From contig MHGF01000003.1 in assembly GCA_001805445.1 (NCBI GenBank), positions 184,429 through 248,428 of the forward strand: 64,000 nt of DNA, read 5' to 3'. This DNA is from Omnitrophica WOR_2 bacterium GWF2_43_52 (GTDB lineage Bacteria; Omnitrophota; Gorgyraeia; Gygaellales; UBA12090). The notes beneath the pieces are model-generated. The model was not told the DNA's origin. It did no database searches and worked only from the letters and a program-made list of their open reading frames with translations. Every line of letters starts with the position of its first letter. The stretch's first letter is position 1. Position numbers and translations under genes: made by a program. Shown here piece after piece: positions 15,847 to 45,560 of the stretch.

Positions 15847-15849
15847 CCA

Positions 15850-15888
15850 TTCAACCTCGTAGGTTGAATTTTCAACCTACGAGGTTGA
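15850..15888. repeat. REP family A pair (TTCAACCTCGTAGGTTGAA / TTCAACCTACGAGGTTGA)
   Basis: Two adjacent near-perfect palindromic units lie right after the stop of the GT4 fusion gene. It is the same unit that flanks the RAYT gene at 27601-28400. Confidence 0.6.
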
Positions 15889-15908
15889 CGCGGTGAGGTT
15901 AAAAAAAT

Positions 15909-19029: not shown

Positions 19030-19032
19030 GAG

Positions 19033-19064
19033 AGGCGGAGCCTCCATAGGGAGGCTCCGCCTCA
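19033..19064 (+). terminator. 12-bp GC-rich hairpin (GGCGGAGCCTCC-atag-GGAGGCTCCGCC)
   Basis: A perfect inverted repeat between the GT4 gene and the next radical SAM gene. The U-tract is weak. Confidence 0.35.
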
Positions 19065-19077
19065 AAACGTAGAAAAC

Positions 19078-20229
19078 ATGAAAACATTCGCTAAGAAAAT
19101 CGCACGGAAGCTGGGGCTGCGTTTTGACGACCTTGTCTGGCCTTATTATTGGGCCGCGTATAACTTTTTAGGTGGGAAGGCGTTTAATCCCCTAAAAATA
19201 ACCATAGAGCTTACCTATGGGTGCAACCTTCGCTGTAAAATGTGCCCTTTGGAAAATGCCAAGGCTGATGAACACACGCCAGCGCCAAATTCTCAAAAGG
19301 AATTATCAATTGATGAACTGCAAGGCTTTGTTAATGACTTAAAAAAGCTTAAGGTAAAATCTATCCTGCTTACCGGCGGTGAGCCTTTTATAAAAAAAGA
19401 TATTGAAAAGCTCATCGCGAAGATTAAAGAAAATAACTTTTACTGCTGTATCCTCAGCAACGGCTATTTTATTACCGAGTATCACGCCAAGAAATTAGTG
19501 GATGCCAAGGTTGACCTGATCAGTTTTTCTATGGACGGGCCCCAAGCGCTGCACAATAAAATCCGGGGCGTTGACGATTCTTTTGAGAAAATATGCCAAA
19601 GCATAAAACTCATTCAAGCCGAGAAAAAACGCGCCCATTCAGCGCTTCCCAGAATCATCCTTAATTGCACCATTTCCGCGCTTAACCAGGAGCACATAAG
19701 TGAAATTGTTGATATTGCTCATGAATTGGGGGTTGAATTAGTAGATTATATGTACCTGTTTTATACCAACCCGGAAAAAATCACCGCTACAAAGAGTGTT
19801 ATGGCGGTAGGCAGCCTAAAGCCGGAAAGCCAAATCCTGCCTGAGAGCATAAAAAAGATAGATGCCCAAAAGCTTATTCAGGAGGTCAACCGGGCTAGGA
19901 ATAAGGCAAAGGAATATAACATCTCTATCGGCTTTAATCCTCCGCTTAAGGACAGTGAAATCGAGAAAAGGTTTTTTGATGATTCATTTTCTTTTAGCTC
20001 AAAATGCTTTTATCCCTGGTTTGAAACCAGGCTTGACCCTTACGGCAATGTCTATCCCTGCTCTTTAGACGTTCCAATGGGTAATATCAGAAAAATGCCT
20101 TTTAGCCAAATCTGGAACGGCGCTCAGTATATTGATTTTCGCAATAAGCTAAAACAGCATAAATTATTGCCGATGTGCGCCAAATGCTGCAAGCTGGTGT
20201 ATCGCTATTGGTCAAAGCTTCCCACCTGA
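19078..20229 (+). CDS. Radical SAM / SPASM-domain enzyme
   Basis: YGCNLRCKMCP is a CxxxCxxC motif. TGGEPF is the glycine-rich motif. The C-terminal Cys-rich region (CSLDVPMGN…CAKCCKL) follows. Confidence 0.65.
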   Translation: MKTFAKKIARKLGLRFDDLVWPYYWAAYNFLGGKAFNPLKITIELTYGCNLRCKMCPLENAKADEHTPAPNSQKELSIDELQGFVNDLKKLKVKSILLTGGEPFIKKDIEKLIAKIKENNFYCCILSNGYFITEYHAKKLVDAKVDLISFSMDGPQALHNKIRGVDDSFEKICQSIKLIQAEKKRAHSALPRIILNCTISALNQEHISEIVDIAHELGVELVDYMYLFYTNPEKITATKSVMAVGSLKPESQILPESIKKIDAQKLIQEVNRARNKAKEYNISIGFNPPLKDSEIEKRFFDDSFSFSSKCFYPWFETRLDPYGNVYPCSLDVPMGNIRKMPFSQIWNGAQYIDFRNKLKQHKLLPMCAKCCKLVYRYWSKLPT

Positions 20230-20230
20230 C

Positions 20231-20271
20231 TTACCGAGGCTAAGCCTCGTTTACGAGGCTTAGCCTCGGTA
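20231..20271. repeat. REP family B: inverted pair of ACCGAGGCTAAGCCTCGT / TACGAGGCTTAGCCTCGGTA
   Basis: A 41-bp composite palindrome. Related units occur at 1583-1605, 23568-23589 and in tandem at 38866-38905. Confidence 0.5.
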
Positions 20272-20281
20272 TGACAAAAAG

Positions 20282-23200
20282 ATGAAAAAAATCGCTTTTA
20301 TTTTTTCCCAGTTCCCCTGCTACGATGAAACCTTTATCTTGCGGGAGATGAATGCCTTGAAGGAAGAAGGGCTTGATTTTATGATATTTTCCCTAAAAAC
20401 CCCTAAGGATGCAATCATTCATTCTGAGGCAAGGGAATTGGCGCAGGATACTTTGTATATACCTTTTCTATCGCTTAAAGTATTTCTGGCGCAACTTTCC
20501 ACTTTGTTGATACATCCTCTTAAATACATAGGCGCGTTTTTTCATATTGTGAAGATATATATCAAAAGCAGCGATTTCCTATTAAAGTCTCTTGCCCTGT
20601 TTCCAGAATCCGTGTACGCGGCGAAACTATTTAAGAAAATGGAAATAAGCCATATCCACGCCCAATGGGCAACGCATCCGGCAACAAGCGCCATCATTAT
20701 CTCTCGGCTCACCGGCATACCATTTAGCTTTACCGGCCATGCCCATGATATTTATGTAAGCACGGCAGGGCTGAAAGAGAAGATACGGGACGCGCGGTTT
20801 GTGGTGACGTGTACTGAAGATAATAAGAAATACTTGGAAAAATTAATAAATAGTCACCAGGTCACCACGTCACAAGGTCACAAGGTAGAACAAAGTCACA
20901 AGGTCACAAGTCACAAGTCACAAGTTAAAATTATAGTTAACTACCATGGGGTTGATTTAAAGCGTTTTAGCGCCCTACATCCCACATCTGAGGTCACGCA
21001 TCCTACATCCATCGTCCATCGTCCATTTCACATCCTCTCTGTCGGAAGTCTCCTGGAATGCAAAGGTTTTGACACCTTGATTGAGGCCTGCGGGCTTTTG
21101 AAGGAGAGAGGCATTGACTTTGAATGTACGATTGCCGGAGGAGGGAGGCTTCTTAGTAGCCTACAGTCCATGGCCCAGAGTAGACAGTTAAAAGATAATG
21201 TAAAATTTACAGGATATATTACCCAAGATAAGCTCATCCCATTATATCAGGAAGCGGATGTGTTTGTTTTGGCTATGGTGCCGGATATTCATTGGGGGAT
21301 TCCCAATGTCCTGCTTGAGGCTGCCAGCTGCGCTGTGCCAATTGTCTGCACGATGCTGCCATCTATCCCGGAACTGATTGAAGACGGCAAAACAGGCTTC
21401 ATTACTCCACCCAAAGACCCAAAGGCAATAGCGGATATACTGGAAAAACTGTATCGCGATGAAGCAATCAGAAAACAAGCAGGGGAAGCGGCACAAGCTG
21501 TAATTGAAGATAAGTTTGACACAGTAAAAAATGCCCAAAGGCTGAAAGAATTATTTTCCACCAATTCACCAAAACAACCTACGAGGTTGAAAATTCAACC
21601 TCGTAGGTTGTTTATGCGGTCATTACTCAGCACAATTTTTTACTTGTTTACTTTTTTTCGTAAGAGAGAAGGGATACTTGTGCTTAATTACCACCGGGTA
21701 AACGATACTCTGGCTGTCAACGAGTTAGTGGTAAGCACAAAAACCTTTGAAGAGCAGATGCGCTATCTTAAAGAGCATAACTATAGAGTGATTGGGTTAC
21801 AACAAATGCTCAACGGGCTAAGCGTTGCCCCGCTTAAGCGCGAACCGGTTCACCCGCGAACTGTCCTGATAACCTTTGATGATGGTTTTCAGGATAATTA
21901 CCTTAATGCTTTCCCGATACTCAAGAAGTTTGGCTTCCCCGCGGTACTATTCTTAACTACAGGGATGATTGATACAGACAAAAAGTTTAAGAAGTACACA
22001 CATATGCCAAGCCCGGATATGCTCACTTGGAGCCAGGTAAGAGAAATGCACAATTACGGAATTGAATTTGGCGCGCATACCGTAACTCATAAACTGCTTA
22101 CTCACATAAGCGTTGACGAAGCAACAAAAGAAATACGAGAGTCGGGAAAATTAGTGTGCGAATTCGCGAGTTCAAAGACATGCGCGTTTTGCTATCCCGC
22201 GGGAGACTACAACAAAAAAATCAAAGAGATAGTCAGTGAATCTGGCTATACCTGCGCCTTCACGGTAAAACCGGGGATAAACCAAAGTACTGACGATTTA
22301 TTCGCGCTTAAGCGCACCGCGATAAATGGTAATGACAGCCTCTTTGATTTCAGGAAAAAACTCGCTGGTGCCTATGACGCACTCCACACCTTTATCCAGG
22401 CGCGAAAAAGTCCTCACTCGTTCCGCGTCCATCGTCCATCGTCCATCGTCAATCGTCAATCGTCTCCCCTGAATGTCCTTTATATCATCTGGTCTTTGGG
22501 CTTAGGAGGAGCAGAACAGGTAGTAATTAACCTCGCGCGAGGCTTAGACAAAAGTAAGTTTAAGCCGATGGTTTGCTGCTTAAACGACAAAGGCGTATTT
22601 GCCGATGAATTGGAAAAAGAGGGAATAAAGGTTATCGCTTTAAATAAAGGCGGGAAATACGATATTACGGTTATTGGTAAATTAATCAGTGTTATGCGAG
22701 CAAACAAAATATCAATAGTCAATACGCATCTTTGGGGGGCAAACCTCTGGGGAAGGATTGCGGCAAAAATTGCTCATATTCCTGTGGTAATTGCTACAGA
22801 GCACAACACCGATATATGGAAAAGTAACTTCTATTTTGTACTTGATAAAGCGCTCAGCTATTGTTGCGATAAAATCATCGCGGTTTCAGGAAGCGTCAAG
22901 GAATTCTACCAGAGTAAAGGAATTAACCCGGGAAAGATAGAAGTAATTTATAATGGAATAAAAGCACATGGGTCACCACGTCACCACGTCACCACGTCAC
23001 ATACGAGAGAAAATTTTGGAATTAAGAATGATGAAACGGTTTTAGCCATCATCGGCAGGCTGGTTCCCCAAAAGGGGCATAAATATCTTTTTGAGGCGTT
23101 GGGGTTGTTAAACGGTTATTGCAAAACGAAATTATTGGTCATAGGAGACGGCCCTTTAAAAGAAGAACTACGCTCAATCGCAAGCAGCCTGCAGCTAAAG

Positions 23201-23596
23201 GATAAAATCATATTTACCGGCTTGAGAAGGGATGTGCTGGACTTACTAAAGATTGTTGATATTGTGGTTATGCCTTCATTGCGGGAAGGCCTGCCGATTA
23301 TCGCCCTTGAGGCAATGGCATCTAAACTTCCGGTAATCGCCACCAAGGTAGGCGGAAATCCAGAAGTCATTACAGACAACCAAACCGGAATATTAGTCCC
23401 CGCGGAGAATACCATAGCCTTGCTGAGGGCAATAGAAAAATTAACTAAAGACAAGGCCTTACGCGAGCAATTGGGAGAAAACGGCTACACTCGGCTCAAG
23501 AAGCATTTTTCAATAGAAAAGATGGTTTCAGCCACGGAAGAATTGTATCTAAAGATATATAGACACAAAACGAGGCTTAGCCTCGTAATAGAATGA
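20282..23596 (+). CDS. 1104-aa tri-domain ORF: GT4 glycosyltransferase, CE4 polysaccharide deacetylase (NodB-like), GT4 glycosyltransferase, joined by repeat-encoded linkers
   Basis: Domain 1 ends …GIPNVLLEAASCAVPIVCTMLPSIPELIEDGKTGFI. Domain 2 carries VLNYHRV…VLITFDDGFQDNY…FGAHTVTHKLL. Domain 3 carries …GLPIIALEAMASKLPVIATKVGGNPEVITDNQTGILV. All three are in one frame with no stop codon. The junctions are occupied by REP A (21575-21610) and by 7-8-nt tandem repeats. Confidence 0.55.
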   Translation: MKKIAFIFSQFPCYDETFILREMNALKEEGLDFMIFSLKTPKDAIIHSEARELAQDTLYIPFLSLKVFLAQLSTLLIHPLKYIGAFFHIVKIYIKSSDFLLKSLALFPESVYAAKLFKKMEISHIHAQWATHPATSAIIISRLTGIPFSFTGHAHDIYVSTAGLKEKIRDARFVVTCTEDNKKYLEKLINSHQVTTSQGHKVEQSHKVTSHKSQVKIIVNYHGVDLKRFSALHPTSEVTHPTSIVHRPFHILSVGSLLECKGFDTLIEACGLLKERGIDFECTIAGGGRLLSSLQSMAQSRQLKDNVKFTGYITQDKLIPLYQEADVFVLAMVPDIHWGIPNVLLEAASCAVPIVCTMLPSIPELIEDGKTGFITPPKDPKAIADILEKLYRDEAIRKQAGEAAQAVIEDKFDTVKNAQRLKELFSTNSPKQPTRLKIQPRRLFMRSLLSTIFYLFTFFRKREGILVLNYHRVNDTLAVNELVVSTKTFEEQMRYLKEHNYRVIGLQQMLNGLSVAPLKREPVHPRTVLITFDDGFQDNYLNAFPILKKFGFPAVLFLTTGMIDTDKKFKKYTHMPSPDMLTWSQVREMHNYGIEFGAHTVTHKLLTHISVDEATKEIRESGKLVCEFASSKTCAFCYPAGDYNKKIKEIVSESGYTCAFTVKPGINQSTDDLFALKRTAINGNDSLFDFRKKLAGAYDALHTFIQARKSPHSFRVHRPSSIVNRQSSPLNVLYIIWSLGLGGAEQVVINLARGLDKSKFKPMVCCLNDKGVFADELEKEGIKVIALNKGGKYDITVIGKLISVMRANKISIVNTHLWGANLWGRIAAKIAHIPVVIATEHNTDIWKSNFYFVLDKALSYCCDKIIAVSGSVKEFYQSKGINPGKIEVIYNGIKAHGSPRHHVTTSHTRENFGIKNDETVLAIIGRLVPQKGHKYLFEALGLLNGYCKTKLLVIGDGPLKEELRSIASSLQLKDKIIFTGLRRDVLDLLKIVDIVVMPSLREGLPIIALEAMASKLPVIATKVGGNPEVITDNQTGILVPAENTIALLRAIEKLTKDKALREQLGENGYTRLKKHFSIEKMVSATEELYLKIYRHKTRLSLVIE
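20853..20924 (+). repeat. Tandem GTCACCA / GTCACAAG units (about 8 copies) inside domain 1 of the fused ORF
   Basis: caccaggtcaccacgtcacaaggtcacaaggtagaacaaagtcacaaggtcacaagtcacaagtcacaag, which encodes a Ser/Thr/His/Lys-rich stretch. Confidence 0.6.
21575..21610. repeat. REP family A pair embedded in-frame inside the fused ORF (at the GT4 / deacetylase junction)
   Basis: CAACCTACGAGGTTGAA-a-TTCAACCTCGTAGGTTG, translated as …QPTRLKIQPRRLFM…. Confidence 0.6.
22426..22464 (+). repeat. 5.5 tandem copies of the heptamer CGTCCAT / CGTCAAT inside the ORF (at the deacetylase / GT4 junction)
   Basis: cgtccat cgtccat cgtccat cgtcaat cgtcaat cgtc. The unit length is not a multiple of 3. Confidence 0.65.
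22972..23001 (+). repeat. Tandem octamer GTCACCAC x3 (+GTCACAT) inside domain 3
   Basis: gtcaccacgtcaccacgtcaccacgtcacat, encoding SPRHHVTTSH. Confidence 0.55.
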
Positions 23597-26500
23597 ACAA
23601 AAAAATAATACTTATTGCTTTAGGCGGTTTTATCGCGGGAATACTCTTTTGCGGAGGAAGTTATATTGCATTTAAAAAATCAAAGCCATTTATTAAAAAG
23701 GTGGCGAAAAAGCTGGAGGAGCGAAGGATTGCCGCTATCCCAAAGGCAAAAGAACCGCTTACACTTTTTGACTTTGAAACTCCTGCTGATACGGGGAAAT
23801 GGTCTGTAAGCCGCGCGGCGATAGATCTTTCCCTGGAACACCCGGCAAGCGGCGCGTCATGCGCGAAAATCACCTTTTTGCCTTCAGGGGCGGCATCATC
23901 AATACGCTTAGATACCTATTTTGAGAAAAATAAAGCCTTGCAAGACTGGTCTCGCTATGAAGTCATTACTTTTGATATCTTTAACCCGTCTTCCACGACA
24001 GAAAGAATAATCCTGCAAATTAAAGATACCAATGATGATAAAATCAAAAGAGACTTATACCTTGAACCTAACACCAATAACCACATAGAAGTTGATATCT
24101 CGGAATTATGGGGAGCATTAAAACCATCCCACCTAAACCAATTCAACCTTTTTCTCTGGGACAATAAGGCTACAAAAGTATTCTATCTTGATAACCTAAG
24201 GCTCCTGCCTTCGGCGATGCTTGAGAAGAAAAACATCAATATCGCTTCTGAAGAATATTTGCCTAAGCCGCAGGAGAAAATTTACGCGATAGAAGACTAT
24301 TTCGCGTTTAATGACCTGAAATGGAAAAAAACCGACCCCCAGACTAACACCGCCTATGTCGCGATACCGCTTATGCTCAGTAAAAATTATCTGCCTAGCG
24401 TTCCAGTAAACCTACCTATATGCGGCGGGATTCCTTTAGGAAAGGGGCAACTCTATACTATTGAAAATTTAGAATTGGTTGATAGCCAAGGTGTTCAGAT
24501 ACCCGCGCAAACCAAGATAATGGCTACGTGGCCTGATAAAAGCATCAAATGGCTGTTATTAAATAGCATCATCCCTGTCTCAAGCCAAGAGAAAAATAAC
24601 TATTACCTGCGATATGCTAAGGATATCCAAAGGCAAACGTATCAGGCTAAGCTCACTGTAGAGGAGAATCAAAATGAGGTAACGGTTAATACCGGAAAAC
24701 TTAGATTCACCATCAGTAAGCGAGGTTTTTGCCTGCTAAACAAGGTATGGCTTGATAAAAACAGCGACAGCACCTATGACGAAGCGGAAAGCCTCTCTTC
24801 ACAAGGTGACATGGTAATCGTGCACAAGGGCAAAGAATACAAGAGCTCTTTGGATAAAAATTATTCCCTTACTATTGAGGAATCAGGGCCGATAAGAGTC
24901 TGCTTAAAGGCGCAGGGATGGTTTGTGGCGGAAAACGGCAAAAAATTCTGCCAATTCAGTACCCGTATCTATGCGTTTGAAGGCTCAAGCTATATCAAAG
25001 TCCAACACACTTTTGTCTATACCGGCTACCCTGAAAATAAAGTGCATTATCTTTATAAAGGTAAACGCCTTCCCGAGAATGAAACCATTGACGCGATTTA
25101 TATCAAAACCCCGCTTAATGTAGGTGAAAATAAGCAATTCACTTTTGCCGCTGATAATAAAATTATGCAGGCGGGTTTAACAGAAAATACGGAATTCCTG
25201 CAAAGTAAATTTAATAGTTACACAATAACTAAGGGCGCCAATAGCCTGGGCTCAGGCGCTAAATTAGACGGCTGGATTGATGTAAGCACGCAAAGCGAAG
25301 GGGTAACCCTCGGAATAAAAAACTTCTGGCAGCAATACCCCAAAGGCTGGCTTTTAGATAAAGAGAAGAAAAATATCATTACCTATATCTGGCCGGCTCA
25401 GGCGGGAAAACTTGATTTTAAGACTACCCCTGAGGCTCTTGGGCCTGATTCGGTAGCCCGCGGCAGCGCCTTCGGAGTAGCTAAAACACATGAGCTGTTT
25501 TTTTATTTTCATACAGGGGATTACGCGGCGTCAAACGCGAAAGATATAGCCTATAGCTTAACCTCGGATATGCTAGTAACAGCAGCGCCGCAATGGGTAG
25601 CGGATACTAAGGTTTTAGGCAGGATATATCCGGCAGACAGCAGATTCTCTCAGGCAGAAGAATTTTTAAGCCGTCTATTTGACTGGGGCGCGCGTCAAAT
25701 TGAAAACTTCGGCTGGTACGGGATGGTTGATTTCGGCGATACCTTAAGCTGGCATAGAGACTCGGATGAAGATAATTCCTACGATACCGCGGACTGGCAT
25801 CCGGTGGGGCGGTGGGGGTGGTTTAATTGCGAGGCAGTGGGCACGCATACAGGGGCATTAATGCAATTCCTACGCAGCGCTGACTATAAATATTTAAAAT
25901 TCGGGGCAAATCAGGCGCGGCATAGTATGGATATAGATACCTGCCATTATAATACCGTTAGTAATGACAAACGCTTAAAAGGCGTAATCCCCGATGACTA
26001 TAGCCGGGTCGGCTCTATGCATAGGCATAATGGCAACCATTGGGGTGACCGTAATGAAGAAGCCTCTCATACTAATCTGACAGGATTGCTTTTGTATTAC
26101 TATATCACCGGCGATGAAAGGGCACATGATGTGCTTGATGAAATGGGAAGCTTCTTCTTAAATGAAAGGCTCACCTATTTTCGCCATCCTGATATGGCGC
26201 CGCAGCGTTCTATTGCCAATGTGCTTTGGGGCGAAGTGCTCTTATACGAACTGACCGCTGATGAAAGATATAAAAAAGCGGCGGATACATGGGCGGGATT
26301 ATTGTACCTTGGCCAAAAACATGATGGGGCATGGGCTGAAGATTATAACCCGGTTAAAAAGAGATGGGACGGAAGGCCTCATGGGGGCTATATCCGGGAA
26401 TATACCATACCTGCCTTAATTGCCTATCATCAGCTTACCGGCAACAAGGCTATTGCCGGCTCAATTCTTAAAGCGACAGAGTATGTAATCAAGACAGAGG

Positions 26501-26727
26501 AATATGGGGCATATTTTGACGGCTCCGCCTATTGCTATTGGTTAACAGGGGATAGGAGATATTTAGCTAACCTCCAGCAAAGATTAGATTATAGCATTAA
26601 CCATCAACGAAAAAGCAGCGACCCCCTGCAGGATGGCATGATTTACCAAAAGGCATATTACGCGCGGGTGATGGAATATCTGTATAAAATGCCCTTCGCC
26701 CTTGAGCCGCTTACTCATGAAAAATAA
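23593..26727 (+). CDS. Large (1044 aa) N-terminally membrane-anchored protein of unknown function; possibly a carbohydrate-binding module plus an alpha/alpha-toroid polysaccharide lyase/hydrolase-like domain
   Basis: An N-terminal transmembrane helix is followed by a beta-rich module, then a C-terminal region rich in W/H/D/Y (…HRHNGNHWGDRNEEASHTNLTGLLLYYYITGDERAHD…) reminiscent of heparinase-II/III-like folds. No firm motif match. The gene overlaps its neighbours by 4 and 26 nt, so it lies in the operon. Confidence 0.3.
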   Translation: MNKKIILIALGGFIAGILFCGGSYIAFKKSKPFIKKVAKKLEERRIAAIPKAKEPLTLFDFETPADTGKWSVSRAAIDLSLEHPASGASCAKITFLPSGAASSIRLDTYFEKNKALQDWSRYEVITFDIFNPSSTTERIILQIKDTNDDKIKRDLYLEPNTNNHIEVDISELWGALKPSHLNQFNLFLWDNKATKVFYLDNLRLLPSAMLEKKNINIASEEYLPKPQEKIYAIEDYFAFNDLKWKKTDPQTNTAYVAIPLMLSKNYLPSVPVNLPICGGIPLGKGQLYTIENLELVDSQGVQIPAQTKIMATWPDKSIKWLLLNSIIPVSSQEKNNYYLRYAKDIQRQTYQAKLTVEENQNEVTVNTGKLRFTISKRGFCLLNKVWLDKNSDSTYDEAESLSSQGDMVIVHKGKEYKSSLDKNYSLTIEESGPIRVCLKAQGWFVAENGKKFCQFSTRIYAFEGSSYIKVQHTFVYTGYPENKVHYLYKGKRLPENETIDAIYIKTPLNVGENKQFTFAADNKIMQAGLTENTEFLQSKFNSYTITKGANSLGSGAKLDGWIDVSTQSEGVTLGIKNFWQQYPKGWLLDKEKKNIITYIWPAQAGKLDFKTTPEALGPDSVARGSAFGVAKTHELFFYFHTGDYAASNAKDIAYSLTSDMLVTAAPQWVADTKVLGRIYPADSRFSQAEEFLSRLFDWGARQIENFGWYGMVDFGDTLSWHRDSDEDNSYDTADWHPVGRWGWFNCEAVGTHTGALMQFLRSADYKYLKFGANQARHSMDIDTCHYNTVSNDKRLKGVIPDDYSRVGSMHRHNGNHWGDRNEEASHTNLTGLLLYYYITGDERAHDVLDEMGSFFLNERLTYFRHPDMAPQRSIANVLWGEVLLYELTADERYKKAADTWAGLLYLGQKHDGAWAEDYNPVKKRWDGRPHGGYIREYTIPALIAYHQLTGNKAIAGSILKATEYVIKTEEYGAYFDGSAYCYWLTGDRRYLANLQQRLDYSINHQRKSSDPLQDGMIYQKAYYARVMEYLYKMPFALEPLTHEK

Positions 26728-27613
26728 AGACGCGATAATAATTGACAAGAAACCTCTCGTGCTGATGTACCATTCGGTAGGAGCGCCTGGCCCTTGCGAG
26801 GTGGGAGCGGAGCTGTATTGCGTCAACACCGAAAATTTCAGGAAGCAGATGGAGTATATCTCAAAAGTCACCAGGTCACTCCCGACGCTTCGGTCGGGAC
26901 AGGCAGGTCACCAAGTTACCAGCTCGCAAAATACAAAGGATGAGGAACGAGAGAAGAAAGACGATAGAGAAGGGATGATGGAAGATGGACAAGAAAAAAG
27001 AAACCACAGACCATTGACTATAGACCATCGACCAATTGTAATAACTTTTGACGACGGATTGCTCGATAATTACACGAATGCCTATCCTATACTCAAGGAA
27101 TTAGGACTAAAAGCGTATTTCTTTATTTTAGCCTCGAAAATCGGGACTGAAGGTTTTATGAACTGGGAACAGATAAAAGAATTAAAGAGTGCGGGAATGT
27201 ATATAGGCTCGCATGGAATGACTCACCGAATATTGACTGAGCTTAACGACGCGGACATGGAGTATGAATTACGTAAGTCTAAGCAACTCTTAGAAAAAAA
27301 CCTGGCTTGCAGTAGTGACTATCTCTCTATCCCGCGAGGATTCTACAATCAAAAGGTTATTGCCAAGGCAAAAGAAGCCGGCTACAAAGCGATTTTTACT
27401 TCTAATCCCAAAGATAACGATGGTTTTACCTTCGGCCGTATCGCGGTAAAAGGAAATTGGGACACAAACTACTTTATACGCGTCACTAAGAAAGGGCTGT
27501 CTTTAAAAGACAAAACTAAGGAGCTATTAAAGAACACTTCCAAAAAAATATTAGGCGCTAAAACCTACGACACCCTAAGAACCACCCTCCTCAAACCAAA
27601 TTCAACCTCGTAG
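26702..27613 (+). CDS. CE4 polysaccharide deacetylase (NodB homology domain) carrying a repeat-derived low-complexity insertion
   Basis: LVLMYHSV … IVITFDDGLLDNY … GSHGMTHRIL … are NodB motifs. Between the N-terminal YHSV block and the TFDDG motif lies a K/E/D-rich segment of about 57 aa encoded by 26866-27037, which contains GTCACCA units and a CCCGACGCTTCGGTCGGG hairpin. Confidence 0.6.
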   Translation: MSRLLMKNKDAIIIDKKPLVLMYHSVGAPGPCEVGAELYCVNTENFRKQMEYISKVTRSLPTLRSGQAGHQVTSSQNTKDEEREKKDDREGMMEDGQEKRNHRPLTIDHRPIVITFDDGLLDNYTNAYPILKELGLKAYFFILASKIGTEGFMNWEQIKELKSAGMYIGSHGMTHRILTELNDADMEYELRKSKQLLEKNLACSSDYLSIPRGFYNQKVIAKAKEAGYKAIFTSNPKDNDGFTFGRIAVKGNWDTNYFIRVTKKGLSLKDKTKELLKNTSKKILGAKTYDTLRTTLLKPNSTS

Positions 27614-27659
27614 GTTGAAACAATTTGTCGTCGGGAATAAAATTCAACCTCGTAGGTTG
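27601..27659. repeat. REP family A composite: TTCAACCTCGTAGGTTGAA - conserved linker (AATTTGTCGTCGGGA) - TTCAACCTCGTAGGTTG
   Basis: Lies immediately upstream of the RAYT gene. The same linker occurs in the copies at 30414-30475 and 45486-45546. Confidence 0.65.
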
Positions 27660-27688
27660 TTTTGGGAAATAGGAGGAAAACAAAATTT

Positions 27689-28351
27689 ATGAGAAAAGAC
27701 TTGCTTAGGACTGCTGAAATTTATCATGTTGTAAATAAAAGTATCGCGGGGTATACTATATTTAACAACAATGAGGAGTTTTTCAGGATGCTGAGCGTCA
27801 TCCGTTATTACCAAAGAAAGAACCCCGGCATCAGTTTTTGCAGATTCTTTGACCCTTCCGAAGACGGAAAAGATAACTTCTGCGATTTTACTGTTTTAGA
27901 AGATAAGGAAAAACTTGTCGAGATAATTTCATATTGCCTTATGCCAACCCACTTTCATTTAATTTTAAAACAGCTTATTGATAACGGAATCTCAACCTTT
28001 ATAAGCAATGTTGCAAATAGCTACGCGCGGTATTTCAACCTCAAACATAAACGAAAGGGCCCGCTTTGGGAAGGAAGATTTAAGAGCATTCTGGTAAAAT
28101 CCGATGAGCAGCTACTCCACTTAACACGATACATTCATTTAAATCCAGTAACAGCCTTGATAACAAACGAGCCTCACGACTGGCAAATGTCTTCTTATAA
28201 TGAATATGCCTATACCATGGCTGAAAATAAAAGAATCTGTAATTACAGCGATATTTTGAGCATCGATCCTGATTCTTACGGTAAATTCGTTAAAGACAGG
28301 ATTGCTTATCAAAAAGAATTGGCTAAAATTAAGGCTTTAATGCTTGAGTAA
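27689..28351 (+). CDS. REP-associated tyrosine transposase (RAYT; IS200/IS605-type Y1 HUH transposase)
   Basis: HUH motif in …CLMPTHFHLILKQ…, and a catalytic-Tyr region …LHLTRYIHLNPV… An AGGAGG RBS lies 8 nt upstream of ATG 27689. The gene is flanked on both sides by REP A palindromes. Confidence 0.7.
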   Translation: MRKDLLRTAEIYHVVNKSIAGYTIFNNNEEFFRMLSVIRYYQRKNPGISFCRFFDPSEDGKDNFCDFTVLEDKEKLVEIISYCLMPTHFHLILKQLIDNGISTFISNVANSYARYFNLKHKRKGPLWEGRFKSILVKSDEQLLHLTRYIHLNPVTALITNEPHDWQMSSYNEYAYTMAENKRICNYSDILSIDPDSYGKFVKDRIAYQKELAKIKALMLE

Positions 28352-28360
28352 CACCACGCA

Positions 28361-28400
28361 TTCAACCTCGTAGGTTGAAATAACAACCTACGAGGTTGAA
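28361..28400. repeat. REP family A pair (TTCAACCTCGTAGGTTGAA … CAACCTACGAGGTTGAA) immediately downstream of the RAYT
   Basis: The inverted arrangement is directly visible. Confidence 0.65.
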
Positions 28401-28413
28401 TCAGGTTAAAATT

Positions 28414-29535
28414 ATGGTAATGGTTTTTTGGGGCTCAATAGCGGTTATTTTGTATACGTACCTTGGATATCCTCTTATTGTTTACCTTATATCGCTTTTT
28501 TATAGACAACCGGTAAAAAGGTCGTATCCTTATCCTACGGTCACTATTGTTATGGCGGTGTATAATGAAGAAAAGAATATTGAAAGAAAAATGCAGTCGC
28601 TCCTGGAACTGGATTACCCGTCTTCAAGGGTGGAAATTTTGATTGGCTCTGACGGCTCAACCGATAACACGCATCAGATACTTTCGCGCTACACCAATGA
28701 AAGGATAAAGCTTTACTGTCAAGCCAACCGACAAGGAAAACCCTGCACCTTAAATATGCTCGCGAAACAGGCGCAGGGGGAATTACTCGTTTTTACCGAT
28801 GCCCGTCAAAGATTAGATAAAAGTTCTATTGATGAGCTAGTCAAAAATTTCGCTGACCCCAAAGTCGGTTCGGTAAGTGCTGAACTCTATTTTGAGGCTG
28901 ATAGAAATAAAACCGCGCAAGGCATGGGAATATATTGGAACTACGAAAAACTCATTCGTAAATATGAGTCTCGCACAGGCTCAATGATGGGGGCAACCGG
29001 CGCGCTCTATGCCATACGCAGGGATTTATTCCCTGAATTGCCCCAAGACCTGATTTTAGATGATGTCTATATCCCGATGAAAATAGTAGAACGAGGCTAC
29101 CGTACAATTTTTGACAAGAAAGCAAAATTATACGACCGCTACTCGGTTAATCCAAGAGAGGAATTTTCACGCAAGTGCCGGACATTGGCGGGCAATTACC
29201 AGCTGATTACCTATTTACCCTGGCTGCTTAATCCTTTTAAAAATAAAATAAGCTGGCAGTTTATCTCACACAAGTTTTTGCGGCTCATGGTTCCTTTTCT
29301 AATGATTATACTATTTACGAGCACTCTTTTCCTTGCCCAGGCCCAATTTTATAAAACGGCTTTATTTATCCAAAGTATTTTTTACGGCTTGGCGCTTATA
29401 GGCGGCGTGGTAAAGATTAAAAACAGTTTGATTGATATACCCCATATGTTTTGCGTCATGAACTTCGCGGCATTGATTGGTTGTTACCGTTTTTTGAGCC
29501 ATAAACAGGCTATCCTCTGGGAAAAAACAGCATAA
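28414..29535 (+). CDS. Membrane-bound family 2 glycosyltransferase (cellulose-synthase-like GT2)
   Basis: N-terminal transmembrane helix, then PTVTIVMAVYNEEKNIERKMQSLLELDYPSSRVEILIGSDGSTDNT, a DxD region and C-terminal transmembrane helices. The ATG at 28414 is preferred over the upstream TTG. Confidence 0.65.
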   Translation: MVMVFWGSIAVILYTYLGYPLIVYLISLFYRQPVKRSYPYPTVTIVMAVYNEEKNIERKMQSLLELDYPSSRVEILIGSDGSTDNTHQILSRYTNERIKLYCQANRQGKPCTLNMLAKQAQGELLVFTDARQRLDKSSIDELVKNFADPKVGSVSAELYFEADRNKTAQGMGIYWNYEKLIRKYESRTGSMMGATGALYAIRRDLFPELPQDLILDDVYIPMKIVERGYRTIFDKKAKLYDRYSVNPREEFSRKCRTLAGNYQLITYLPWLLNPFKNKISWQFISHKFLRLMVPFLMIILFTSTLFLAQAQFYKTALFIQSIFYGLALIGGVVKIKNSLIDIPHMFCVMNFAALIGCYRFLSHKQAILWEKTA

Positions 29536-29543
29536 CCGCCTTT

Positions 29544-29562
29544 TTCAACCTACGAGGTTGAA
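29544..29562. repeat. Single REP family A unit (TTCAACCTACGAGGTTGAA)
   Basis: Sits between the GT2 stop and the exosortase start. Confidence 0.55.
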
Positions 29563-29587
29563 AATAGGTTAAAACAGGAGAAACATC

Positions 29588-30400
29588 ATGAAAAAGATAG
29601 ACATAGCTAAAATTAGCGTTGTATCCTTAGTAACGTTGGCTGCCTATATACCCACTTTTATGTGGATGATAGACAGATGGAATGAACGTGATTCCTACTA
29701 TAACCACGGTATGTTAGTCCCCTTCATCAGCGCGTTCATTGTCTGGTTAAATAGAAAGAAGCTCGCCACATTAGAAATTAAGCCTTCAGCGCTCGGATGG
29801 CTTCTTTTTGGTACGGGGATTATCATCCATACCATAAGCGCGCTCGTCAGGGTATACTTTAGCTCAGGATTTTCACTTTTATTAACGCTCTCAGGACTAG
29901 TGCTGTTATTCCTAGGCAAGAAATTTCTGAAAGAACTTTTATTTCCCATCACATTCCTTATTTCCATGATACCTCTGCCGCTGGTAGCCATTGCTAATAT
30001 TAGTTTCCGCTTAAAAATATTCGCCGCGCAACTATCTACCGCCATCCTTAACGGCATGGGAATTCCCGCCATGCGTGACGGCAGTGTGATAAAAACCATG
30101 CACTCTTATTTAATGGTAGAGGACCCATGCTCCGGGATACGCTCATTGATTGCCCTCATTTCACTGGGAGCACTCATGGCATACTTTAGCAATACCACGA
30201 AAATAAAGAAGGCAATACTCTTTTTATCATCTATCCCCATAGCGGTTGGCTCTAACATCATCAGGATAGTTGCCTTGGCATTGGCCAGCGAGATGTATGG
30301 CACAAAGCTTGCCACCGGTACATTTCATGACGTCATGGGGATCCTTGTCTTTGTCTTTGCCTTTTTAGGGCTATCATTAGTAGGAAAAACGCTTGAATAA
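29588..30400 (+). CDS. Exosortase (XrtA/EpsH-family transpeptidase)
   Basis: An approximately 8-transmembrane-helix protein with exosortase hallmarks: the N-terminal …MWMIDRWNERDSYYNHGMLVPFIS… block, and conserved Arg/His in later loops. It is adjacent to an EpsI gene and multiple PEP-CTERM substrate genes. Confidence 0.7.
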   Translation: MKKIDIAKISVVSLVTLAAYIPTFMWMIDRWNERDSYYNHGMLVPFISAFIVWLNRKKLATLEIKPSALGWLLFGTGIIIHTISALVRVYFSSGFSLLLTLSGLVLLFLGKKFLKELLFPITFLISMIPLPLVAIANISFRLKIFAAQLSTAILNGMGIPAMRDGSVIKTMHSYLMVEDPCSGIRSLIALISLGALMAYFSNTTKIKKAILFLSSIPIAVGSNIIRIVALALASEMYGTKLATGTFHDVMGILVFVFAFLGLSLVGKTLE

Positions 30401-30413
30401 CAGCCAAACCAAA

Positions 30414-30475
30414 ATCAACCGCGGAGGTTGCGGAAATTTGTCGTCGGGAAAAAAAATCAACCGCGGAGGTTGATT
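30414..30475. repeat. REP family A variant composite: ATCAACCGCGGAGGTTG - linker (AAATTTGTCGTCGGGA) - ATCAACCGCGGAGGTTGAT
   Basis: The arms are a variant of the unit, and the linker is the same as in the 27601 and 45486 copies. Confidence 0.6.
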
Positions 30476-30487
30476 TAGGGAGGGGAG

Positions 30488-31108
30488 ATGAATAATAAGA
30501 CTTTTTTTGTGGTGTTGGGGGTTTTGATTGTGGTGGCGGGGTTGGCGCTTATGGCGTACCTGCCGGCAAGGACGGATATTGCTTTAAGCACAAAAGTTAG
30601 CGATTTTCCTAAAGAAATAGGGGAATGGAAGGGAACTGATTTGCCTATAGAAGAGAATGTATATGAAATCCTGGAAACCAGGAACCTTTTCATCAGAGAT
30701 TATAAAAACGCGAAAGGGGAATCTGTCTATCTTTACATTGTGTATTCGGAAGATAACCGAAAAGTCAGCCATCCTCCGGAAGTCTGCTTCTTGGGAAGCG
30801 GGGCTACGGTCGTAGACAAATCATCACTTGAACTCACACCCACTATTACAGCAAGCAAACTACTGATAGAAGACGCGAAGACCCGTAGTATAGTGGCCTA
30901 TTGGTTTAAGGCAGGAAACTTAAATACAAACCAATATATTAAGCAGCAGCTTAAAACCGTCTTTGACAGAATAGCGGGGAAAAGAACATCATCAGCGCTT
31001 ATTAGACTGTCTACAGATATAAAAAATGACCTGCACAATGATGCCATCAGTCTCTTAAAATCGTTTGCCAGCCAAATTGAACCGCTCATAACCAACTACG
31101 TACCATAA
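30488..31108 (+). CDS. EpsI-family exosortase-associated protein
   Basis: An N-terminal signal-anchor is followed by the characteristic …VSHPPEVCFLGSGATV… (H-x-PE-x-C…G-x-G) motif of EpsI. Confidence 0.65.
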   Translation: MNNKTFFVVLGVLIVVAGLALMAYLPARTDIALSTKVSDFPKEIGEWKGTDLPIEENVYEILETRNLFIRDYKNAKGESVYLYIVYSEDNRKVSHPPEVCFLGSGATVVDKSSLELTPTITASKLLIEDAKTRSIVAYWFKAGNLNTNQYIKQQLKTVFDRIAGKRTSSALIRLSTDIKNDLHNDAISLLKSFASQIEPLITNYVP

Positions 31109-33127: not shown

Positions 33128-33991
33128 ATGAAAAAGTATCTCAATATAATAATCGGCGTAGTCTTAATTGCCACACTTGCCCTTATTCCTACGCTAAAGG
33201 CTGAAGCTGTGATAGTTGACAGCGGAAGCATCAGCCTTATTGACTCTACCGATATTATGCCCTTTCCAGACCCTGCCCCTACCGGCTCAGGGCTTGGGAC
33301 ATTAGACCTTATAATGCTTTCTTTTTCAGCAGGAGGCGCAGGCAATAACCCTTCAGGGCCGTTAAACTTTGATAACGCCAATACTGGCCTGCCCACCGGT
33401 TCAACTACAACAGCTAATGAATCCTATATAACTTCCGTTGGAGAACTCAGGGATTTCTACGACCTCAATTTTGGCGTTGGCGCGGTTAATGAAATGGTTC
33501 TCTTCCTAAATATCAACGAAACAGGAGGAACTCAAGATATACTTCTAAGTAAACTTGATATTGTTATTGACTACACTAGCCCAACTACCGGGGGAAGAGA
33601 TAATCCAGCGGCTAATGATATAACTTCAGCGACACAGAACAGCACCAACGACGTATTTGACGGCGGCACCCGCATCGCGAAATTAGGTGCGGGAACGCCT
33701 TTCTCCGTGCTACAGATAAATACCGGTATAGGCGCTATTGACCAGTATATCCTAACAGGCATAGACCCTTTTGACCCCGCGTATTCAGATTCTACAAGGA
33801 TTCTATTTCACTGGGAAAGCTCTGTACATGATGCGGGGGGCGAAGTGGTTTTCTTGAGCGGGACCTTTCGTAAAGAAGACCTTCCTGGTGACGGCGGTGG
33901 CGGCGGCAATGGCGTTATTCCCGAACCAACCACCATGTCGCTTTTAGGCTTAGGGCTTTTAGGGTTGGCAAAGTTAAGAAAGAAAAGATAG
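33128..33991 (+). CDS. Secreted PEP-CTERM protein (paralog 2)
   Basis: Signal peptide and Gly-rich stretch, then …GGGGGNGVIPEPTTMSLLGLGLLGLAKLRKKR. Confidence 0.65.
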   Translation: MKKYLNIIIGVVLIATLALIPTLKAEAVIVDSGSISLIDSTDIMPFPDPAPTGSGLGTLDLIMLSFSAGGAGNNPSGPLNFDNANTGLPTGSTTTANESYITSVGELRDFYDLNFGVGAVNEMVLFLNINETGGTQDILLSKLDIVIDYTSPTTGGRDNPAANDITSATQNSTNDVFDGGTRIAKLGAGTPFSVLQINTGIGAIDQYILTGIDPFDPAYSDSTRILFHWESSVHDAGGEVVFLSGTFRKEDLPGDGGGGGNGVIPEPTTMSLLGLGLLGLAKLRKKR

Positions 33992-34120
33992 TAAACACCC
34001 AAGCTTGACGTTACAAATTTCCTAAAAATAACAGGAAAACGCGGCTTGCTATATATAACGTAATAATACCAACATTTAAAAGTAACTGCCCTTGCAGACT
34101 CAATCAAAAGGAGAAGCAAA

Positions 34121-34771
34121 ATGAAAAGACTCGCAGTGATAACAGCAATACTTTCTATTGCGCTAACGGTAAGCAATGCCTCTGCCAGCACATTGACAGG
34201 ATTTGGCGATCCTATTGATGCTGCCGCGCTTGCCGGCGGAACAGTTATCGATTTTGATAGTGGCCCAACAGGATCTTATTCTTCGCTTACGCTTCTTGGT
34301 GTAACCTTCAATGATTTGGATTACACATTCAGAATCAGTTCTGCTTACATCGGTTCTTACAATACGGAAGGCACATATTCTCTTCAGAACGGTGATTACG
34401 ATAGCACGATGACCCATCGCCTTCGTTTTGACTTTGCGTCTGCGGTTGATGCCTTTGGTTTTAATTGGGGAGCGTCTGACGATACCTGGCTGCTTAGTGC
34501 TTTTGATTCAAGCAATAATTTACTTGATAGCCTTTCTATCGCACCAACTCAGAGCAGTAACTCCGGTGATTATTTTGGCATTGCATCTTCTAACATTTCA
34601 TATGCCACCATTGTTAATCAGTCAGGAGATAATGGTGACTTTATTTTTCTTGATGATTTCACTTATAAGGGTCAAGGCGGCGGCGGTAACGGCGTCATCC
34701 CTGAACCGACTACCATGTCGCTCTTAGGCTTAGGGCTTTTGGGGTTAGCAAAGTTAAGAAGGAAAGGGTAG
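34121..34771 (+). CDS. Secreted PEP-CTERM protein (paralog 3)
   Basis: Signal peptide, then …GQGGGGNGVIPEPTTMSLLGLGLLGLAKLRRKG, a tail nearly identical to paralog 2. Confidence 0.65.
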   Translation: MKRLAVITAILSIALTVSNASASTLTGFGDPIDAAALAGGTVIDFDSGPTGSYSSLTLLGVTFNDLDYTFRISSAYIGSYNTEGTYSLQNGDYDSTMTHRLRFDFASAVDAFGFNWGASDDTWLLSAFDSSNNLLDSLSIAPTQSSNSGDYFGIASSNISYATIVNQSGDNGDFIFLDDFTYKGQGGGGNGVIPEPTTMSLLGLGLLGLAKLRRKG

Positions 34772-34928
34772 GAAGCACCCAAGCTTGACGTTACAAATTT
34801 CCTAGAAATAACGGGAAACGCGGCTTGTTACATATATAACGTAATACTACCAACATTAAAGAGCGATTATCCTTGCAGATTTAAATTGGTTGCGGGGAGA
34901 TTCAATCAAAAAGAGAGGAGAACCATAG

Positions 34929-35891
34929 ATGGTAAGAAAAGTAACACTTATAACCTTAGCGGCATTCGGACTGCTCATCGGCAGACTGCCTAATGCCCAC
35001 GCCGCTACCTTCGCGACCGGAGATATTTTTGCTTCGGTAGCCAGCGGTAATGTAAACTGGTATCGGGCTGATGGATCATTTGTCCAAACCCTTAATATCG
35101 GAGCAGGCGGCTTTACTACAGGTATGGCCTTTGATGCTGCCGGGAATCTTTATGTCACAGGGTTCTCTGTCGGCACAGTTGACAAATTTGATACCAGCGG
35201 AAACCCATTAGGGAATTTTGCCGCGGGGCTTCCTACACCGGAATCTATTGTGTTTGATAATTCCGGAAACGCGTATGTGGGAAATGTGGGTGGCAGTATT
35301 AGAAAATTTGATTCTGCCGGGAATCCTTTAGCTACCATTCTTGCCGGTACCAGGGTCGATTTTATGGATCTTATGGCAGACCAAACCACCATGCTTTATA
35401 CGCAGGAAGGCGGCCTAATTAAATCGGTCAATGTAGCCACGAACACCGGGCTGGCTGACTTTGCCTCAGGTTATGGCGGAAGCCAGGCATTCGCCCTGCG
35501 TGTCTTAGCTGATGGCGGGGTTCTCTTAGCCGACAGGGTAAATGTAAAAAGGTTTAACTCAGCAGGCACCCTTATCCAAAGCTATGATATCGGGGGAGAA
35601 GACAGCTGGTTTGCCCTTAACCTCAATCCGGATGGAAACTCTTTCTGGAGCGGAAATTATAGTACCGCGAATCTCTATGAATTTGACCTTGCATCCGGAG
35701 TCAATACCCAGATTCTCAATACCGGGACAGGTGGGAACACTTTGTACGGAGTGGGTATTTTCGGCGAGCAAACCCAGGGATGCCAAGATTGCGGTGGAAC
35801 AGATAATAATGTTATTCCCGAACCTACCACCATGTCGCTTTTAGGCTTAGGGCTTTTAGGGTTAGCAAAGTTAAGAAAAAAAGCCGCATAG
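34929..35891 (+). CDS. Secreted PEP-CTERM protein with NHL/beta-propeller-like repeats (paralog 4)
   Basis: Repeated …GNPLGNF… / …SGNAYVGNVGG… / …AGNPLATI… blades, followed by …NVIPEPTTMSLLGLGLLGLAKLRKKAA. Confidence 0.65.
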   Translation: MVRKVTLITLAAFGLLIGRLPNAHAATFATGDIFASVASGNVNWYRADGSFVQTLNIGAGGFTTGMAFDAAGNLYVTGFSVGTVDKFDTSGNPLGNFAAGLPTPESIVFDNSGNAYVGNVGGSIRKFDSAGNPLATILAGTRVDFMDLMADQTTMLYTQEGGLIKSVNVATNTGLADFASGYGGSQAFALRVLADGGVLLADRVNVKRFNSAGTLIQSYDIGGEDSWFALNLNPDGNSFWSGNYSTANLYEFDLASGVNTQILNTGTGGNTLYGVGIFGEQTQGCQDCGGTDNNVIPEPTTMSLLGLGLLGLAKLRKKAA

Positions 35892-35961
35892 TCATCGTCT
35901 TGTGACATGGTGACTTTGTGACTTGTGACTCTATAAGTTTTTTAAATCTACAGTAGAGGAG

Positions 35962-41223: not shown

Positions 41224-41246
41224 CCCTCTCCCCGAAGGGGAGAGGG
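41224..41246. repeat. Family C hairpin CCCTCTCCCC-gaag-GGGGAGAGGG
   Basis: A perfect 10-bp inverted repeat directly upstream of the DUF559 gene. A partner hairpin sits at 41634-41654, directly downstream. Confidence 0.5.
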
Positions 41247-41633: not shown

Positions 41634-41654
41634 TCCTCTCCCCAAAGGGGAGAG
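41634..41654. repeat. Family C hairpin CCTCTCCCC-aaa-GGGGAGAGG
   Basis: The inverted repeat overlaps the stop codon of the DUF559 gene. Confidence 0.5.
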
Positions 41655-45471: not shown

Positions 45472-45485
45472 AAGAAGGAGCGAAA

Positions 45486-45546: not shown

Positions 45547-45560
45547 TTGGGTTTGAGGAT

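Follow-up and report, generated by a model that had tools for sequence, protein, structure and literature searches.

A 64-kb stretch of the Omnitrophota contig MHGF01000003.1 (hereafter the window, i.e. the whole of the 64 000 nt that were analyzed) very probably contains a REPtron, that is, a gene for a Y1 HUH transposase of the REP-associated tyrosine transposase (RAYT) type flanked by its cognate hairpin repeats, where REP stands for repetitive extragenic palindrome. According to the annotation of its open reading frames (ORFs), the region is an exosortase/PEP-CTERM polysaccharide locus, whose products are family 4 glycosyltransferases (GT4s), Wzy, an acetyltransferase, radical SAM enzymes, deacetylases, a PcRGLX-like enzyme, a family 2 glycosyltransferase (GT2), EpsH, EpsI, a sugar transferase and PEP-CTERM proteins. 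That this is a known kind of system, found here in the unstudied phylum Omnitrophota, is well supported by our data. The RAYT gene and the seven REP loci of the window are listed below (dG, folding free energy in kcal/mol; z, z-score of the fold).

27689–28351, + strand: RAYT gene (Y1 HUH transposase, 220 aa); Pfam, NCBIfam, PDB profile search, conservation, AlphaFold2 (AF2) model and Foldseek
15848–15889, units 15850–15868 (+) and 15871–15889 (−): inverted doublet at the GT4–Wzy junction, beginning 3 nt past the upstream stop; dG −19.7, z −7.1
21571–21612, units 21573–21591 (−) and 21594–21612 (+): inverted doublet at the GT4/deacetylase module joint of ORF 20282–23596; dG −21.4, z −8.6
27592–27666, + strand: composite of 75 nt upstream of the RAYT gene, two direct units (27601–27619 and 27643–27661) and the linker AATTTGTCGTCGGGA at 27622–27636
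28359–28400, units 28361–28379 (+) and 28382–28400 (−): inverted doublet downstream of the RAYT gene; dG −20.0, z −9.3
29544–29562, − strand: single unit at the junction of the GT2 and EpsH exosortase genes, from 19-mer match and fold
30405–30479, + strand: composite of 75 nt, CCGCGG-core variant, at the EpsH–EpsI junction; units 30414–30432 and 30456–30474, cores 30417–30429 and 30459–30471
45484–45559, − strand: 75-nt composite, CCGCGG-core variant, between an FtsX-type permease gene and a LolA-like gene; cores 45489–45501 and 45531–45543

The RAYT ORF starts with an ATG at 27689, ends with a stop codon at 28349–28351 and is preceded by an AGGAGG ribosome-binding site (27672–27677). The original prediction, made from the letters of the window, had seen in it a REP-associated Y1 transposase with the motifs THFHLIL and RYIHLNPV, and both motifs are indeed present at that place: H88 and H90 in PTHFH form the HUH motif, the catalytic residue is Tyr148 in RYIHLNP, and an SS motif stands at residues 168–169. 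The Pfam model Y1_Tnp (PF01797) matched the protein with 34.1 bits (E 3e-8, cut-off 23 bits), which assigns it to the superfamily; in the same scan it was the only match, and no DnaA_C domain or C-terminal domain of helix-turn-helix (HTH) type was found. A search of the PDB with a profile of 25 homologues gave E. coli TnpA_REP (4er8) as the top match (E 1e-5), with an alignment that passes through the HUH, W..RF and Y-I-x-x-NPV motifs, and further listed the ISDra2 TnpA (E 2e-3). A first AlphaFold model from 25 close homologues was discarded for its pLDDT of 45, whereas the AF2 model calculated from a diverse alignment of 116 sequences had a pLDDT of 94.5. Foldseek again placed 4er8_A at the top (E 1.6e-7, target-normalized TM 0.69), followed by the ISDra2 (2xqc) and IS608 (2vjv) transposases. 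Among the 116 diverse relatives Y148 is invariant and H88, H90, N152, P153, S168 and S169 are each conserved in at least 90%, so that careful alignment finds the HUH and tyrosine residues invariant or nearly so across the family. The consensus of these relatives reads MPNHFH...RYIHLNP...SSY, and the window protein has THFH, WE, YIHLNP and its SS at 168–169. The tyrosine motif is of the form Y---NP (YIHLNP, residues 148–153), the mark of class 2 TnpA_Y1/RAYT proteins, while IS200 proteins have Y---Q and about 150 aa (PMC6006769, Table 1). The family is large: at 90% identity it falls into more than 2,500 clusters, most of which bear the label Omnitrophota, and at 50% identity there are 253 with E ≤ 1e-30.

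For the analysis of the repeats we used the 19-mer TTCAACCTCGTAGGTTGAA and its degenerate 13-mer core AACCKCGKAGGTT, i.e. AACC[T/G]CG[T/G]AGGTT. The hairpin of the window has the core AACCTCGTAGGTT and forms, within the 19-mer, an 8-bp stem with a 3-nt loop. The 13-mer core was found in 13 units at the 7 loci, all of them without a mismatch, compared to 0.18 expected by chance in the 64 kb. With up to 3 mismatches allowed, the 19-mer gave 13 matches (0 expected), 4 of which are reverse-strand readings of the near-palindrome, leaving 9 units. By form, three of the seven loci are inverted doublets, three are direct doublets that share a conserved linker, and the remaining one is a single unit. 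The three 75-nt composites are 82–94% identical to each other; those at 45484–45559 and 30405–30479, which carry the GCGGA ('CCGCGG') core in both hairpins, share 94%. The original prediction had placed these repeats correctly to within 2–3 nt, including the units that bracket the transposase gene at 27601–27661 and 28361–28400. It had also described three doublets joined by a common 15-nt linker, and the linker, which contains TCGTCGG, was found exactly at 27622–27636 and 30435–30449 and with 2 mismatches at 45511–45525. It had spoken of a composite like a bacterial interspersed mosaic element (BIME); for the inverted doublets, long hairpins like those of REPINs, i.e. REP doublets that form one hairpin, are a better description than BIMEs. 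The gene is, moreover, bracketed by a 24-nt terminal inverted repeat with arms at 27594–27617 and 28384–28407.

All seven loci are junctions of co-directional genes, where the repeat lies 0–13 nt past the upstream stop or overlaps it, with the exception of 21571–21612. A REP at every junction of the operon, as had been claimed, was not observed: of about 13 junctions in the part from 13.5 to 31.5 kb, 6 carry a REP, and one more REP junction lies at 45.5 kb. At the REP-free junctions of this part the genes overlap, nothing is present, or a different palindrome (CGAGGCTWAGCCTCG) is found.

We analyzed the flanks of 80 metagenome loci with relatives 48–60% identical to the window protein, to which relatives taken from assemblies and genome bins were added. 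A common word of at least 11 nt was found on the two sides of the gene in 79 of 82 homologue loci, compared to 11.5% of mismatched flank pairs and to none of 32 flank pairs displaced by 2 kb. These counts, together with the flanking units in the window, establish the REPtron arrangement. The core of the window, AACCTCGTAGGTT, stands beside the gene in only 6 of the 80 loci, and we therefore dropped the idea of one universal REP for the whole family in favor of lineage-specific hairpins, such as CCACCTCGTAGGTGG, TACACCCCAGGGGTGTA, CTCACTTCCGAAGTGAG and ACCCGTTCCTGGAACGGG in other lineages. These hairpins follow a common grammar, with a stem top ...ACC-N5-GGT... that is often enclosed in an outer pair AACC-N(3–9) ... 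N(3–8)-GGTT. In a rough neighbour-joining tree of 89 RAYTs, which is too weakly resolved to distinguish one from several origins of the CAACCTCGTAGGTTG type, neighbouring proteins carry hairpins of like type. Two divergent RAYT copies on a single 533-kb metagenome contig (L116 and L131) each have their own, different hairpin. RAYT protein and repeat thus vary together across lineages, which is the REPtron pattern. The prediction of a Y1 transposase with its own palindromes dispersed at gene junctions is upheld by the Pfam and 4er8 matches, the catalytic residues and the flanks of 79 of 82 loci.

Comparison with relatives showed that, over evolutionary time, repeats have appeared, disappeared, decayed and been replaced in concert on an unchanged operon backbone. 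A protein identical to the window RAYT was found in 48 blocks of public assemblies. Position 1 of the window matches position 184374 of contig DNSN01000042.1 (GCA_003499645.1). In L174, whose RAYT is 76% identical on the protein level and whose DNA is 73% identical, the gene again directly follows that for the deacetylase, which likewise ends ...LKPNSTS*, with its TAG inside a REP unit. In relatives with 65–68% RAYT identity both the genomic context and the hairpin are different. At the GT2–EpsH junction the unit is intact in the window and decayed in L178 (92% identical exosortase); in L179 (78%), which is probably the same genome as L174, the junction is empty and measures 12 nt. At the EpsH–EpsI junction both the window and L178 have a direct composite, with two GCGGA cores in the former and two TCGTA cores in the latter, and an inverted doublet of yet another variant was observed in L179. 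In a relative whose EpsH is 84% identical, the RAYT slot (27614–28413 of the window) is taken by a hicAB toxin–antitoxin pair and the EpsH–EpsI slot (30401–30487) by a gene for a 23S-rRNA-intervening-sequence protein (23S-rRNA-IVP). These operon junctions appear to take up small selfish inserts of several kinds. We also recognized that contigs of relatives begin or end in REP doublets or composites (L174 10664–10702, L178/L180 1–62, L179 1–30). In the 92% relative, every contig ends inside the composite upstream of the GT2 gene. The REPs thus break short-read assemblies, and in many metagenomes the RAYT neighbourhood is hidden in this way.

These comparisons bear on a competing reading, in which the gene and its hairpins are an autonomous insertion sequence (IS) of the IS200/IS605 type, with gene and end hairpins moving together and the solo hairpins being derivatives like miniature inverted-repeat transposable elements (MITEs) or footprints. 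The fold is the same as that of IS608 and ISDra2 TnpA, a 24-nt inverted repeat brackets the gene, its context differs at 65–68% protein identity, and the 533-kb contig holds two divergent copies. Those two copies, however, have different hairpins, which is the pattern of RAYTs and not that of identical IS copies, and the protein has Y---NP instead of Y---Q and 220 aa instead of about 150 aa (PMC6006769, Table 1). Only a single copy of the gene was seen in the 64 kb, no tnpB gene adjoins it among the window ORFs, and its position is the same in a relative with only 73% DNA identity. We consider an autonomous IS improbable on this evidence. The fixed position in the 76% relative and a hairpin that varies by RAYT lineage fit instead a transposase that is domesticated and vertically inherited within a REPtron.

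Folded as single-stranded DNA, the inverted doublets form perfect hairpins of 17–19 bp with dG values of −19.7 to −21.4 kcal/mol and z-scores of −7 to −9; the doublet at 28359–28400 gives a perfect, REPIN-like hairpin of 18 bp. For the single unit at 29544–29562 we obtained a hairpin of 10–13 bp (z −5.9), and less distinct folds for the direct composites (z −2 to −4). No repeat had a match in the Rfam scan, terminator-like matches were found on the antisense strand only and in a number not above that in shuffled sequences, and promoter consensus matches overall did not exceed the shuffles either. As a side observation, sigma-70-like hexamers (TTGAAA-17 nt-TAAAAT, 10 of 12 positions) are present at 27615–27643, 46 nt before the RAYT start; REP unit 1 contributes its 3′ arm to them and the linker its last part, and they are not kept in the other two composites.

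Two further explanations would leave the transposase aside. The palindromes could be regulatory or structural elements of the host (mRNA stabilizers, attenuators or protein-binding sites) whose proximity to the transposase gene is incidental. All seven loci lie at co-directional junctions near the upstream stop, and the perfection of 13 of 13 cores could reflect selection; moreover, the REPs of E. coli are known to influence mRNA stability. On the other hand, the units occur in both orientations, a Y1 gene is bracketed by lineage-specific sequences in 79 of 82 loci, the same unit is found on many unrelated contigs of other metagenome-assembled genomes (MAGs), and neither the Rfam scan nor the antisense, chance-level terminator-like matches indicate such a function. 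A role for the host would also be compatible with spread by the RAYT. We regard a primarily regulatory origin as improbable. The other explanation is an integron-like cassette array with the palindromes as attC sites, each after a promoter-less gene, suggested by the repeating order of gene and palindrome and by ATTCAAC...GTTGAAT, which fits RYYYAAC/GTTRRRY; two units match this core-site consensus by eye. Known attC sites are 57–141 nt long and imperfect, with R''/L''/L'/R' boxes and extrahelical bases, whereas the units described here have 19–41 nt, are perfectly paired and stand in mixed orientations. No tyrosine-recombinase integrase was found among the window ORFs, the association is with a Y1 transposase, and the gene order of the exosortase/exopolysaccharide operon is kept in relatives with and without palindromes. 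We therefore rejected the attC reading, for want of an integrase and for its wrong geometry, as hardly conceivable.

Several observations weigh against the REPtron interpretation. The curated RAYT model of NCBI, NF047646 (REP_Tyr_transpos), matched only residues 72–168, with 57.6 bits and E 1.3e-15, and thus stayed below its cut-off of 80. The units lack the unpaired 5′ GT[AG]G foot of canonical REPs of the GTAG superfamily. The folding of the doublets, proposed as a check in the original prediction, gave the long hairpins and not the 5′ tetranucleotide foot. A GTAG does occur within the unit, across the loop and the 3′ arm (CCTC-GTAG-GTTG), and a 'double-foot' reading GTAG-GTTGAA..TTCAAC-CTAC is possible for the doublets 15848 and 28359 but not for 21571; in the hairpins of many homologues, e.g. 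TACACCCCAGGGGTGTA, GTAG is wholly absent. The cleavage site cannot be deduced from the sequence alone. All known copies in the window lie within 30 kb of the RAYT gene. Finally, the system had been called active. Six loci of different samples match the window with 99.9% identity or more over 17689–30573 and have no insertion or deletion at the REP sites, so that this strain-level comparison yielded no presence/absence polymorphism and no direct sign of ongoing transposition.

The repeats also affect the coding sequences of the operon. The TAG stop codon of the deacetylase gene (27611–27613) lies in the loop of REP unit 1. The doublet at 21571–21612 falls exactly between the GT4 and deacetylase modules of ORF 20282–23596, with no stop codon before it, and is read as KQPTRLKIQPRRLF in the sole stop-free frame of the palindrome; 1 nt after the doublet an ATG follows at 21614, with a hydrophobic N-terminus behind it. 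The ORF has 1104 aa and comprises a GT4 module, a polysaccharide deacetylase module and a further GT4 module. The REP doublet forms its first joint and a tandem repeat of the CATCGTC type its second, and the gene callers of five assemblies report it as one protein. The copy that had been noted inside a coding sequence (CDS) is thus read in frame, yet its place is the boundary between two domains of a read-through fusion ORF. Further multi-module fusions were seen at 13522–15846 and in L174. Tandem repeats of 7–8 nt (GTCACCAS..., CATCGTC...) were observed at 20845–20916, 20997–21039, 22410–22466, 22964–23009 and 26899–26936 in frame, in linkers between the domains of the GT4 and deacetylase ORFs; they encode low-complexity stretches such as HQVTTSQGHKV and HRPSSIVNRQSS. 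A period indivisible by three is odd within open frames.

Next to these REPs, two other palindrome families were recognized in the window. The first, CGAGGCT[AT]AGCCTCG, has 6 exact copies (1587–1601, 20235–20268, 23571–23585 and 38867–38901) and a related doublet at 19032–19063. It forms an inverted doublet at the junction of the radical SAM gene and the fusion ORF, encodes with another copy the C-terminal ...KTRLSLVIE* of ORF 20282–23596, and stands as a direct doublet in frame in the AMP-binding CDS 38403–39953; an unrelated loop of equal length takes its place in a relative with 71% identity. No cognate transposase for this family was found in the window, and it flanks none of the fetched RAYT homologues. 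The second is GC-rich, CCCTCTCCCC-N3-GGGGAGAGGG, and was found at 3737–3759, 41226–41244, 41636–41654, 43443–43461, 43491–43510 and 12050–12135; it clusters around a DDE (rve) transposase gene (39978–41129, − strand) and a DUF559 gene (41265–41633). Furthermore, a 143-nt direct repeat (33896–34038, 34676–34818 and 35793–35935, 69–87% identity) marks the ends of three successive PEP-CTERM genes, which look like tandem paralogous exosortase substrates.

Beyond the window, the exact 19-mer was found in 87 stretches of GTDB species-representative genomes, compared to about 4 expected by arithmetic from the size of the collection. The contig of the window was not among these stretches, and blastn of the window against all 87 gave no match. 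It is present at 3–9 loci in each of 12 MAGs, and the record titles of the MAGs with the 19-mer name Omnitrophota, 'Planctomycetia', Saccharibacteria, Roizmanbacteria, Berkelbacteria, Elusimicrobia and Sphingobacteriales. In 7 of the 87 stretches a RAYT homologue, 33–57% identical to that of the window, lies inside the same 8-kb locus, mostly directly beside the 19-mer; in L035 the RAYT is flanked by a different hairpin and the 19-mer is about 2 kb off. In the genomes that share the 19-mer the core is set in a longer, genome-specific palindrome. Closer relatives of the window RAYT (65–69% identity) use other hairpins, and the shared 19-mer therefore points either to a recurring, restricted recognition code or to joint transfer of gene and repeat. 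Spread between phyla by a phage vector was considered and rejected, as 2.9 million viral contigs contained only 2 matches and no enrichment.

Two further observations were made on the 19-mer stretches. Head-to-tail arrays of the core with a period of 14–15 nt were seen at L063:1382–1456, L077:372–446, L017:1153–1209, L069:5112–5171 and L046:11–70, with 4+1, 1+4, 1+3, 2+2 and 3+1 forward and reverse units inside the longer genome-specific palindrome; they suggest that amplification acts on the single unit. A contig of 2.2 kb from a bin assigned to Aenigmatarchaeota (L068, QMZY01000176.1) shares an element of about 55 nt (conserved 5′ extension and REP) with the 'Planctomycetia' stretch L071 (CAZESF010000117.1). 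The archaeal label is probably a binning error, which means that the taxon labels of the 19-mer matches need checking.

A wider proposition can be put forward only tentatively, and we hold it to be somewhat less probable than its opposite. The window RAYT may belong to a very large, essentially undescribed RAYT subfamily, mostly of Omnitrophota and other uncultured lineages, that combines the motifs of subclass 2.1 with a strict REPtron arrangement and a REP grammar of its own (ACC-N5-GGT top, no GTAG foot), multiplies a minimal unit of 13–15 nt into tandem arrays, and lets an identical 19-mer serve RAYTs 33–57% identical to that of the window in MAGs labelled Omnitrophota, Patescibacteria (Saccharibacteria, Roizmanbacteria, Berkelbacteria), Elusimicrobia and Bacteroidota. 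If this were true, either a conserved, recurrently used recognition code or the transfer of gene and repeat together between phyla would follow. To our knowledge, RAYTs and REPs have so far been studied almost only in Proteobacteria. In the literature that we searched, the 13-mer core appears in no paper, and none connects Omnitrophota or the Candidate Phyla Radiation (CPR) to RAYTs or to REPINs.

How the system would work can be modelled on the strand transfer described for TnpA_REP and for IS608/ISDra2 (PMC3479197, PMC3333891). By analogy with E. coli TnpA_REP and the TnpA of IS608 and ISDra2, the enzyme would bind the hairpin extruded on single-stranded DNA, and Tyr148 would cleave the strand and form a 5′-phosphotyrosine link while H88 and H90 hold the metal ion. 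Rejoining of strands could then copy or move units and doublets to new sites over evolutionary time, whereas the RAYT gene itself would stay in place. As side effects on the operon, the deacetylase gene takes its stop codon from a REP, two genes are joined as a single ORF by a doublet in its one open frame, and hairpins in the polycistronic mRNA may change the stability of transcript segments.

These loci are of interest in several respects. About 80 related loci in which protein and hairpin lie side by side offer material on how Y1 enzymes read hairpins. The published classification appears to have a gap, as the most similar subclass was published as not REP-associated. The repeats seem to reshape the host operon, one by giving a stop codon and one by fusing two genes, and they share gene junctions with other small selfish inserts, namely the hicAB and 23S-rRNA-IVP genes of a relative.

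Among known systems, the TnpA proteins of the IS200/IS605 family (IS608, ISDra2) share the Y1 HUH fold with the window protein; they recognize subterminal hairpins on single-stranded DNA, and the window protein presumably shares their chemistry. The window protein differs from them in its Y---NP in place of Y---Q, in its greater length and in having no tnpB; the window has no further copy of its gene, which keeps its synteny in a diverged relative. By its motif set it fits TnpA_Y1 subclass 2.1 and not the E. coli-type subclass 2.2, a fit judged by motifs and length. Subclass 2.1 corresponds to the Group 1 RAYTs of Bertels and to most TIRYT/TIRtron elements (PMC6006769; PMC3733652). Its signature is NH[YF]H or NHVH, W[EQ], Y[IV]HLNP and an SS tail motif at a median length of 238 aa, with a C-terminal HTH domain (Bac_DnaA_C, HTH_23 or HTH_28), and REP-like structures were not found near its genes (PMC6006769). 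TIRYT genes have terminal inverted repeats (TIRs), some of them self-complementary, which belong to families of moderate abundance and may be grouped in dimers or clusters (PMC3733652). The window family resembles this subclass in NHFH (THFH in the window), WE, YIHLNP, SS, a length of about 220 aa and a gene flanked by terminal inverted repeats. It departs from it in the hairpins that flank 79 of 82 loci and in the window protein, for which Pfam detected no C-terminal HTH; the GGGGWSAS consensus of TIRs is absent from the window repeats.

The best match in both sequence and fold is E. coli TnpA_REP (YafM), the RAYT of the E. coli REP/BIME REPtron, which belongs to subclass 2.2 or Bertels Group 2 (structure 4er8). 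The two proteins are only about 15% identical over the aligned core, and that of the window is the larger one (220 aa compared to 165 aa), being extended in its N-terminal part and ending in a helical tail; its REPs are short, AT-rich and perfect over 8 bp, without the bulge or the unpaired 5′ GTAG foot of the E. coli REPs. Both systems nevertheless have the HUH, Y---NP and W..RF motifs, hairpins that bracket the gene and, in our case within the 64 kb, are also dispersed between genes as singles and doublets, an apparently stable position and the look of a low-copy gene. REPINs of Pseudomonas, reportedly treated by Bertels and Rainey in 2011 together with Group 3 RAYTs, reach hundreds of copies. 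The spacer is far shorter in the window, direct doublets with a linker are equally common there, and we know of no description of unequal forward/reverse tandem arrays of 14–15-nt units, as seen in the relatives, for REPINs. As in REPINs, though, the doublets 15848, 21571 and 28359 each consist of two inverted REPs, here with a 2-nt spacer, that form one long hairpin, a doublet flanks the RAYT gene, and RAYT lineage and REP sequence covary.

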